Part shown: positions 13,444-15,884 of the stretch, one piece after another
Layout: the number at the start of each line of letters is the position of its first letter
Numbering within the stretch: position 1 is the stretch's first letter
IMG/VR virus record: IMGVR_UViG_2541047857_000014
From: a virus
Taxonomy: Duplodnaviria > Heunggongvirae > Uroviricota > Caudoviricetes
DNA length: 64,000 bases
Strand: one strand, 5' to 3'
Translations under genes and position numbers: made by a program
Notes under the pieces: model-generated
Told to the model about the DNA's origin: nothing
Seen by the model: only the letters and a program-made list of their open reading frames with translations
Database searches by the model: none

Positions 13444-13800
13444 TTAATACAGGTTCCGCCACTGATCATCTTCCTGCAAACGCTGGTTCCGATAGAAGAT
13501 ACGCAGGCCTGCTCCTGACGGAATACTGCCTCCGCGAAGGAGTAAATCGACCTCTTTCTCGCTGCCATCAAATCCTCTGGACTTCAGCTCATACACGAGC
13601 TGCAGTCGCTGATGGTCTGTAATTCGCTGTTTGTAGTCTTTACGCCGTTTCGGTTTCACCAGGCGTAACCTTGCTGCCAGTTCCCGGCGCTCTTTTTTGC
13701 TCATACTGTGCAGGTAATCGTGCAACTCCTTGTCATCCATGCTGGTAATGTCCGTTCTGGGGTCCCCATCAGCTGATTTATCTTTCTCCTGTTGGTTCAA
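13444..13800 (-). other. open frame that becomes continuous with gene A if one 26-bp repeat copy is removed; probably the displaced 3-prime end of A rather than an independent gene
   Basis: 118 codons open; no ATG or convincing RBS at its 5-prime end (TTG, no SD); frame arithmetic shows deleting one copy of the 13809-13860 duplication fuses it to A. Confidence 0.45.
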
Positions 13801-15884
13801 ATTTTCAGCAAGGGGACAGTTATTGCCACGAGTCCAAGGGGACAGTTATTGCCACGAGTCCAAGGGGCGCAAGCGCCCTGGTCGGCTGCCGCCTCCTGAA
13901 TGTCAACGGCCTTACGAACCATTTTCCACTTCACCGCATGAGTGCAGATCTTGCCCTCTGCAATGGGTGACCAGATGCCATAAATACGAATACCGTGATC
14001 GCCATAGGCGGTCGGCTCTTCGTTGATTTCATAAGCGGTTCTGATGAGGTGATATTTGCGGGGAACCAGTACGCCGCCCTGCTTCATGATGTAGGTGGCA
14101 AAACAACCAGCATCAGCAGCGGCTAGGATGGCATCAAGGCGCGGGTTATCCAGTACCGGCGCACCTGCTTTTTTGTCCCCCTGTTGCCTTGCCGCCTGAC
14201 CAGCCAGCAATCGCAGTTCACGGTAAGCCTGACGCCCCGGAATGCCAAAGAAGCGGAATTGCTGAACACGATGCAGAGACGCCCAGGCATTAACGTATTC
14301 AGCGTTATCACGCAGGGATTTACCCGTTTCCTTGCTGATCTCGCCAGCCAGACCACGCCCGTCAATGTTCTTACTGATGTATTTCGCGATGTAGCTTGTT
14401 GGCGTACCTTTGCGCGGGTTTATCAGCTCAGACTTAAAGCGTGGTTCCGTGTTATTACCCAGCTCCTCGCGGTCTTCACGAATGGCAAACTTACGCAACA
14501 AAGCAGTAATGGCGCGGCGATCTTTTTTGCGCATAAAACACAACAGGTGCCAGTGAACTGTACCGTCATGATGCGGCTCAGCCACCCGCACGCCATACCA
14601 GCGTAATCCGGCTTTGTGCATCGCCTTACGAAATGCAGCAAACATACCGACCAGATAATCACTGCTTTGTCTTACCGTCGCATTTGTCCAGGTCGGGTTG
14701 GGCCTGCCGTTATTTAGCGTGGAATGGAAACGTGACGGACAGGTGATGGTGTAGAAAACGGCGCAGTCACCGCGCATTTCCGCGATAAGCTCCAGACCTT
14801 TAACACAGGCCATCATCTCATTGCGGCGATGCGCAGGGTTGCTGCTGCTGGCGTTTACCACGTCTTCCATATCCAGCGTGTCGCCGTCTTCGTTCACCAG
14901 TTCATGAGAACGGAAAAACTCCAGCGACTTACGGCGCTGCTCACGTTTATGCATCACGGCTTCATAGCTGACATAGGGAGATGCTTTTTTGCTGACCAGG
15001 CAAACAGCACGCAACTGCTCTTCCCGCCATTCGCAACGCATCTTCCATAATTTCCGATACCACCAGTCGGCGCATAACATACGCGCCAGCGAACCCGGAA
15101 TGAGTTCATAAGGCACGGGTTTACGGCGGTTTCTTTTCCGACGGAGTTGCTCAAACGCAGGCGGGATAACATCCAGACGCAGGGTTTCCGCTGCCACCTT
15201 TTCCCATGTTTTGCGGATTTCTTCTGGCTTAATGTCATCGGTGGCATACAAATCACCACAAGCTGCATCAAGGCACATGCTCATATGCGCGGCGACAAGG
15301 GTAGACAGGCGCTTCACCTGATCCTGACTCATTTCAGGCAGGATCAGCAGGCCGTCCAGCCCTTCATGGCTTGCCATAAAGCGAAAAGAAGTGGATAGCT
15401 GACAGTCGCGTACATGCTCCAGTCGTTCCAGACATGGCTTAATCGTCTCACGCAAATAGCGGGAATAAGCCTTTGGCCTGCCCAGGCTGCTGAAGTATTC
15501 AATACGTTGCATCAGCGGCTTGCTGATATGGGAAGGCTGGGCGTTAACGTCCGCCAGAATGACCATGTCTGGATTAAAACGCTGCTGCTCATGCGCCAGC
15601 TTTGCCCGGCTAATGAGCTTATCCTGCTCCATTTCGCGTTGGACAGGATCACGGGATTCATTAAAGAAATAACGCTCCCAGGCCTGATCACTCAGTGCCT
15701 CGCGGCGCAGCTGTTCCTGCTCGTTATCGGCAGCGTACAGAGTGATCAGGTTTGAAAGCGCAGAAACCGGCGCGACTTCCGCCGGGTCCAGATAAGGGTT
15801 AATGGCCTTTTTCGGGCTGTTCCATGAGAACGCTGCGGCAGCCTCGTTAAAGCCGCAGCAGTTGTTCATATCGGCATGACTCAT
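13797..15884 (-). CDS. A: replication initiation endonuclease A (P2 gpA family), as currently framed 695 aa; possibly truncated by the 26-bp duplication
   Basis: Large ORF between Dam and the SOS module with rolling-circle initiator-like content ([15 protein letters not shown]); reads through both repeat copies and stops 36 nt later. Confidence 0.75.
13809..13867. repeat. 26-bp perfect tandem direct repeat (2 copies plus 7 bp of a third) inside the 3-prime end of gene A
   Basis: caaggggacagttattgccacgagtc occurs at 13809-13834 and 13835-13860, followed by caagggg. Confidence 0.85.

Follow-up and report, generated by a model that had tools for sequence, protein, structure and literature searches.

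The replication gene A of a P2-family prophage in Escherichia coli S88 is almost certainly a frameshift pseudogene, and the 26-bp tandem duplication that breaks it very probably lies on the nick region of the replication origin (ori) carried within the gene itself. The gene occupies positions 13444-15884 (minus strand) of a 64,000-nt stretch of Caudoviricetes DNA (IMG/VR record IMGVR_UViG_2541047857_000014; this whole stretch is referred to as the window), in a ~34-kb prophage integrated beside ssrA, and is the sole annotated pseudogene within that prophage. The frameshift as such is an ordinary pseudogene already known from RefSeq annotation, in which the identical span of E. coli S88 (NC_011742), matched by the window at 100% identity, is labelled 'replication endonuclease, frameshifted' by the Prokaryotic Genome Annotation Pipeline (PGAP). 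The cause of the break is more informative, in that the break appears to sit exactly on the origin nick site and to have occurred there repeatedly in unrelated prophages from E. coli and related bacteria; we are highly confident that this site is a recurrent hotspot of duplication. Both points go beyond the initial annotation of this DNA, which had described the duplication and its effect on the frame. The explanation as a whole, namely that A was broken by a duplication at the ori nick, that such duplications recur and that they are made by the A protein, is in our assessment somewhat probable.

A tandem duplication in gene A of the S88 prophage

Tandem Repeats Finder reported a single array at 13809-13867 with a period of 26, 2.3 copies and 100% matches (unit CAAGGGGACAGTTATTGCCACGAGTC), in agreement with direct reading and with the two perfect copies plus 7 bp of the initial annotation. 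Copy 1 spans 13809-13834, copy 2 spans 13835-13860 and a third, partial copy of 7 bp follows at 13861-13867, giving a perfect periodic stretch of 59 nt (2.27 copies) inside gene A; a perfect 59-nt periodicity within 64 kb cannot be due to chance. On the sense strand of the gene, the duplication reads CCCCTTG-GACTCGTGGCAATAACTGT-CCCCTTG-GACTCGTGGCAATAACTGT-CCCCTTG.

At 2441 nt, the gene is no longer a multiple of 3. The A frame is shifted at codon 684 and, as had been stated, crosses both copies and terminates 36 nt later at a stop codon at 13797-13799, having added 12 novel residues. The truncated reading frame (13797-15884, minus strand) encodes 695 aa (683 native and 12 out-of-frame residues) compared with 804 aa in relatives, and a full-length uninterrupted A frame is absent from the S88 prophage. 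Removing one 26-bp copy in silico yields 2415 nt and a single 804-aa open reading frame (ORF) with zero internal stops, exactly the protein of about 804 aa that frame arithmetic had predicted. The C-terminal tail of A, now out of frame, is still open (13444-13806, minus strand; 120 codons plus stop). Within it lies the ORF at 13444-13800 that had been singled out for being open over 118 codons of another frame while having no ATG; this description held, the only start being a mechanical TTG.

The S88 gene is a member of the P2 gpA family of rolling-circle replication initiators (two-tyrosine proteins that begin replication by nicking the origin) by descent, yet a pseudogene by a +26 frameshift, an assignment based on PGAP, Pfam and similarity to Salmonella phage RE-2010. 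The repaired protein matches the Pfam family Phage_GPA (PF05840) with E = 4e-128 and 427 bits (cut-off 31.4), residues 188-510 covering profile positions 1-321 of 321. This catalytic domain (14355-15323, minus strand) is intact upstream of the break and includes an HWH metal-binding motif (residues 444-446, 14547-14555) as well as the motif YIAKY (residues 498-502, 14379-14393), which holds both active-site tyrosines, three residues apart. For the tyrosines, this role is the one assigned in P2 (Odegrip & Haggard-Ljungquist 2001, as cited in PMC3986222).

RE-2010 (Felsduovirus, Fels-2/RE-2010-like) is the nearest named relative, with ~95% DNA identity across gene A, and the S88 gene is closer to it than to P2. 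RE-2010 gp11, annotated as 'nicking at origin of replication' (NC_019488), has the same neighbours as its S88 counterpart (a dam methylase gene upstream, a small ORF and a DinI-like gene downstream) but carries a single 26-bp unit and an intact frame. Alignment to related A genes, the comparison that the initial annotation had suggested, showed a single copy of the unit and an intact A of 804 aa in both relatives that were checked individually, RE-2010 gp11 (2415 nt) and E. coli NRZ99027-2. The A gene of P2 is likewise of the PF05840 family, with two active-site tyrosines and the ori inside the C-terminal part of its own gene; it differs in encoding an intact protein of 761 aa, in having a single nick site and in its flank and tail sequences. 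The P2 gene A and its internal ori were reportedly characterized by Liu, Saha and Haggard-Ljungquist in 1993 and by Liu and Haggard-Ljungquist in 1994.

More broadly, 54 phage records match at least 80% of gene A, and the 30 of these that were listed span 26-29 nt less than the query. This stretch of A is carried by ~1,250 E. coli genomes, most of the matches listed being 26 nt shorter than the S88 query. The two-copy junction is absent from all 72 isolated-phage records matching gene A, and intact phages that combine two copies with an independent downstream gene, the arrangement named in the initial annotation as speaking against a broken A, were not found.

The probable origin nick site and its recurrent duplication

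The RefSeq record of P2 (NC_001895) annotates a 'nick site at ori' at 29892, and that of 186 a rep_origin at 28576 by similarity. These positions correspond to the two adjacent G of TCGGAG, and the nick therefore falls between them. Upon alignment, P2 TCG^GAGTCCTGTCAATAACTGT corresponds to TTG^GACTCGTGGCAATAACTGT in the S88 prophage (TCGGAG versus TTGGAC), by which the 26-bp unit extends from 7 nt on the 5' side of the nick to 19 nt on its 3' side. The S88 prophage has two such nick motifs 26 bp apart (13861|13860 and 13835|13834), together with a bare left half, CCCCTTG, at 13809. The putative nick site 1 (13860-13861, minus strand; sense CTTG^GACTCG), which is placed by alignment to P2 and 186 and by the arrangement in phiX174, is preceded by a hairpin. 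The putative nick site 2 (13834-13835, minus strand), the duplicated copy, has the same 7 nt on its 5' side and 19 nt on its 3' side, without the hairpin.

The hairpin is an inverted repeat, GGGCGC-TT-GCGCCC (13865-13878, minus strand), that stops 4 nt short of nick site 1 on its 5' side and is not part of the duplicated unit. A predicted stem-loop ending 4-6 nt 5' of the nick is found in 5/5 A/ori families with differing stems (GGGCGC/GCGCCC, GCGGC/GCCGC, GTGCGGC/GCCGCAC and GGGCGGC/GCCGCCC), located at 13865-13878 in the window, 3374-3386 of locus L011 (P2), ~4555-4572 of locus L012 (186) and ~2290-2320 in the loci L200 and L201. Because the stem sequence varies in a compensatory manner between families, the comparison suggests that the hairpin is a structural element of the origin. 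The P2 ori thus shares with that of S88 both the conserved nick core and a hairpin just 5' of the nick.

The phiX174 system (NC_001422) offers a further parallel: like S88 A, it has a two-tyrosine initiator with the origin in its own gene, on the sense strand. Its nick, CAACTTG^ATATTAATAAC, comes after CTTG and is followed by AATAAC, as in S88, and viral-strand synthesis starts at A4306 (rep_origin 4306). It differs from the S88 phage in being a single-stranded DNA phage and in the nick-to-AATAAC distance (5 nt versus 11). The substrate oligonucleotide of P2, reportedly the sense-strand GCGCCTCGGAGTCCTGTCAA, matches the P2 record exactly. Taken together, these comparisons make it very likely that the unit duplicated in S88 represents the nick region of the ori.

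A junction-only query that single-copy loci cannot seed identified the +26 junction in 8/5,426 complete E. coli genomes, ~1,259 of which carry gene A (~0.6%). The hosts of the eight carriers were humans, mice, pigs and a cat. Among these carriers, the length of the A gene (2441 or 2399 nt), the gene upstream of A and the downstream cargo all vary. Flank-anchored scans, in which the conserved flanks are fixed and the content between them is left unbiased, recovered at least 120 single-copy loci in IMG/VR, with five +26 and four +6 expansions and no contractions; three +26 and one +6 expansions were found in JGI/ENA metagenomes and none in GTDB species representatives. A -26 deletion junction was likewise absent from the 5,426 E. 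coli genomes.

The site also carries other duplications. In L153 (IMGVR_UViG_3300029508_000048, ~10146-10231), whose A gene is more divergent than that of S88, three tandem 26-mers form a periodic span of 85 nt, an out-of-frame gain of 52 nt. Directly 3' of the nick, the hexamer GACTCG is present in one to five copies, giving (Thr-Arg)n in A; such alleles (L197, L198, L199, L007, L200, L201 and L202, from complete E. coli genomes) include divergent A families with other flanks. Strain RM10809-3 has a 21-bp duplication at the nick, for which the left boundary can only be TTG^GAC. The hexamer and 21-bp alleles all preserve the reading frame and have been annotated as intact; hexamer expansion was not found in isolated-phage records. 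A core-pattern scan of IMG/VR (CAATAACTGT twice within 30 nt) returned 55 matches, nearly all of them unrelated chance repeats; the relevant ones were four known +26 loci, L153 and L156.

Two of these loci show peculiarities of their own. L156 (IMGVR_UViG_2531839591_000017, 675-717, minus strand) is a 186-like A in which the ori core is repeated in frame, although imperfectly, with a 33-bp repeat that places SSVNNCTEG twice in the protein; the upstream copy carries a degenerate nick motif, CTGGTTAG, in place of CTTGGAG, as if one nick site had been disabled. In L016 (IMGVR_UViG_3300010260_000008, 2816-2900), the two copies of the +26 allele differ by one base (CTAT versus CTGT), and the CTAT variant also occurs in one single-copy locus; either an older duplication or recombination within the repeat would account for this difference.

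To gauge independence, we compared 930 nt of flanking sequence from 123 loci using a neighbour-joining tree and Fitch parsimony. The two S88-type loci are mutually identical; every other expanded locus is at least as near to a single-copy locus as to a carrier of the same class, and mostly nearer. Across the 13 loci that carry +26 or +52, parsimony required 12 changes, corresponding to about 12 independent +26 events; the 5 loci that carry +6 required 5 changes. The +26 allele resides on at least 11 haplotypes (120 nt either side), two of which also occur as single-copy and one of which was seen at separate loci with +26 and with +6. The spread of a single ancient allele, whether through descent or through patchy recombination, was rejected as the main explanation on account of these haplotypes and of those shared with single-copy or +6 loci. 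Apart from one divergent sequence, the analysed flanks are essentially free of indels in 122 loci.

How the duplications may arise

All duplication classes are compatible with one left boundary, sense TTG^GAC, among one possible placement for the 21-bp, two for the 6-bp and eight for the 26-bp duplication. Flanking microhomology amounts to 7 bp for +26, to a single base pair for +6 and to none for +21. The left half of the nick site naturally reads CTTG in the S88 prophage and CTCG in P2 and 186. Among positions +1 to +40 of the nick, 3' ends of the form CTYG occur only at +6 (CTCG) and +26 (CCCCTTG), that is, at the two recurrent lengths.

These features are consistent with a mechanism in which the initiator makes the duplications itself. 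A would nick the sense strand and remain bound to the 5' end, and the free 3'-OH would be extended by a few (N) nucleotides. If A then rejoined the 5' end to the new 3' end with the round uncompleted, a tandem copy of the N nt that directly follow the nick would result, and rejoining should be easiest where the new 3' end resembles the natural left half (CTYG-3'OH). This model predicts duplications only and never deletions. Alternatively, termination at a look-alike site after a full round could give the same +26 product; we prefer rejoining because full-round termination should also give -26 deletions, none of which were seen. P2 packages monomeric circles (PMC8537503), and a mutant circle could therefore be packaged. 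Such a circle may lysogenize a new host, a step for which A is not needed, and would then be unable to replicate, which would explain why +26 alleles appear as isolated tips in otherwise intact prophages.

Rearrangements with an endpoint at the nick of a rolling-circle initiator are a known kind of event in M13 and pC194, which provides an analogy for the model. Initiator-associated illegitimate recombination at the M13 and pC194 nick sites is said to have been described by Michel and Ehrlich in 1986 and by Gros et al. in 1987. In the M13 and pC194 rearrangements, one endpoint lies exactly at the initiator nick and the other at a nick-like sequence, much as the ends of the +6 and +26 duplications, CTCG and CTTG, resemble the nick site here. 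Those cases are mostly deletions in small plasmids or a filamentous phage, and the need for the initiator is reported to have been shown experimentally. The events described here, by contrast, are exclusively short tandem duplications; they fall within the coding sequence of the initiator itself, the phage is tailed and temperate, and a role of A is putative.

The strongest competing explanation is slipped-strand mispairing, while host (or phage) DNA is being replicated, between the two CCCCTTG repeats 26 bp apart, perhaps stimulated by the hairpin, with A uninvolved and the overlap with the nick due to coincidence or local structure. In single-copy relatives, a perfect 7-bp direct repeat flanks a 19-bp core on either side, and a stable hairpin lies immediately upstream; moreover, copy number climbs to three for the 26-mer and to five for the hexamer, as expected in an existing array. 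Against slippage, however, no reciprocal -26 deletion was seen in IMG/VR or in the 5,426 E. coli genomes, and nine other direct repeats with similar spacing in the analysed flanks, two of 7 nt and seven of 6 nt, are without indels in 122 loci. Furthermore, flanking microhomology is absent from the 21-bp duplication and limited to 1 nt in the recurrent 6-bp one, and the boundary that is possible for all classes falls on the annotated nick and not on the hairpin base. On this evidence, slippage is possible but somewhat unlikely, and we favour an initiator-dependent origin, to which we would give about an even chance; the dependence of the events on active A protein is something we infer from the pattern at the nick.

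Several considerations weigh against the recurrent, initiator-made duplication at the nick that is proposed here. The position and strand of the nick are drawn from the P2/186 RefSeq annotation, the phiX174 analogy and the reported P2 oligonucleotide. The CTYG rule was noticed post hoc, once the data had been seen, and the 21-bp event comes from a single genome and has a 3' end, TGTCC, that is unlike CTYG. Microhomology such as the 7 bp that flank +26 is what slippage classically acts on, and a hexamer array that already has two copies can lengthen to three to five by slippage of the ordinary kind. No expansions were found in flank scans of P2-type and 186-type origins, which is weak evidence as the number of single-copy loci matched by these flank patterns was uncounted. 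Finally, recombination among P2-like prophages can inflate the parsimony count, in which reversions are also counted as changes; the 33-nt nick region is exceptionally mutable whether or not the number of events is inflated.

If the initiator does cause these events, they would constitute a natural record of a two-tyrosine rolling-circle initiator mis-joining DNA, as well as a way of locating nick sites from sequence only. They would also amount to a built-in route to replication-dead prophages, because lysogeny needs no A. In its most far-reaching form, the proposal is that P2-family phages have their origin mutated by their own A protein, with aborted or misplaced strand transfer making duplications that start at the nick, the commonest class of which, +26, disables A and is self-reversible by active A. 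We regard this full version as rather unlikely. Were it true, +26 would be a recurrent way for P2-family phages to become replication-dead prophages, and the two direct nick motifs would let any active A resolve +26 to wild type during rolling-circle termination. In the literature searched, we came across no account of duplications anchored at the nick of a P2-family origin, nor of A being inactivated in this way. The pattern around the break is a testable lead on initiator mis-joining and on replication loss in P2-like prophages, and the repeat copy count at the ori site indicates the likely replication competence of such a prophage.

Probable consequences for gene A and the prophage

The part of A lost through the frameshift is a conserved C-terminal tail of 121 residues, while the catalytic domain is retained. 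Across 80 distinct single-copy sequences, the ratio of nonsynonymous to synonymous polymorphism (pN/pS) of the tail is 0.18 in the A frame, compared with 1.1-1.5 in the other two frames, and equals that of the 600 nt upstream in A (0.18 versus 0.18). The tail is open in all frameshifted carriers with complete tail sequence, and it has motifs in common with the A proteins encoded by P2, by 186 and by more distant relatives, across genera. The lost tail is under purifying selection and is part of A proper, and the S88 prophage is therefore probably replication-defective after induction. A replication-defective A was one of three options put forward in the initial annotation, and it gains support from this constraint together with the duplication-free isolated-phage records (0/72). 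The tail is not open to the usual stop in a single locus, L107 (IMG/VR), out of 111 single-copy loci, which suggests a different lesion in A.

The second option, a selected, reversible on/off switch (contingency locus) operating by gain and loss of 26 bp or by rolling-circle termination between nicks, found no support. Perfect tandem repeats are unstable by nature, carriers retain an open tail frame, and the same flanking haplotype was found with one and with two copies; given the established behaviour of rolling-circle initiators, two direct nick motifs could in principle be resolved through initiation at one and termination at the other. Yet the allele is rare (8/~1,259) and sits at the tips of the tree, which is the pattern expected of a deleterious mutation that recurs; the three-copy allele is out of frame too, and the downstream nick copy is without hairpin. 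In addition, the exact truncated product is fixed on 53 contigs, and the assembled sequences give no evidence of within-strain heterogeneity. We consider such a switch very unlikely.

Even less probable, in our view, is that the truncated 695-aa A is fully functional, the tail being dispensable, made from the 118-codon ORF or regained by ribosomal frameshifting. All of the Pfam catalytic domain lies upstream of the break, HWH motif and both tyrosines included, so that the loss of function is a prediction made with the catalytic domain intact, and tail length varies widely among A proteins (64-254 aa past the ori motif; 77 in 186); both facts speak for a working product and against the defect proposed here. 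A dispensable tail is, however, difficult to reconcile with purifying selection as strong as in upstream A, with motifs shared across genera and with the lack of the +26 allele in isolated-phage records. Rescue by ribosomal frameshifting, which would need a -1 or +2 shift, was rejected as there is no in-phase XXXYYYZ heptamer ahead of the stop. The 118-codon ORF was also rejected as an independent gene: selection acts in the A frame only, the start is lacking as described above, and the ORF is never separately annotated in relatives such as RE-2010 and NRZ99027-2.

The third option, a sequencing or assembly artefact, is excluded because the allele is identical (100%) in three independent complete assemblies (S88, MS7163 and N53) and recurs in five further E. 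coli genomes from various hosts and countries and in IMG/VR and metagenome contigs, with the exact 695-aa product on record on the 53 contigs; assemblers can in general miscount tandem repeats, but nothing specific was found in favour of such an error, the probability of which we consider negligible.

Beyond gene A, the prophage carries a CI repressor and a DinI/Tum-like gene. A hypothetical protein of 469 aa (11127-12536, minus strand) occupies a slot of variable cargo that is flanked by the DinI-like and portal genes. The contents of this slot differ in each relative examined, comprising HEPN plus PIN, DarT plus macro domain, phosphoribosyltransferase plus DprA, or AIPR, which fits the P2 anti-phage hotspot described previously (PMC9122126). 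Within the window, a gene of the AIPR family (abortive-infection-type; 561-2261, plus strand) lies on the opposite strand between the baseplate V and virion morphogenesis genes of the prophage. Past the integrase, the interval 20591-27873 contains nuclease-type genes (PD-(D/E)XK, GIY-YIG and DUF262) and a recombinase fragment, as well as a frameshifted DinI-like pseudogene (25157-25374), and a second, unrelated prophage extends from ~27.9 kb to beyond 50 kb of the window.

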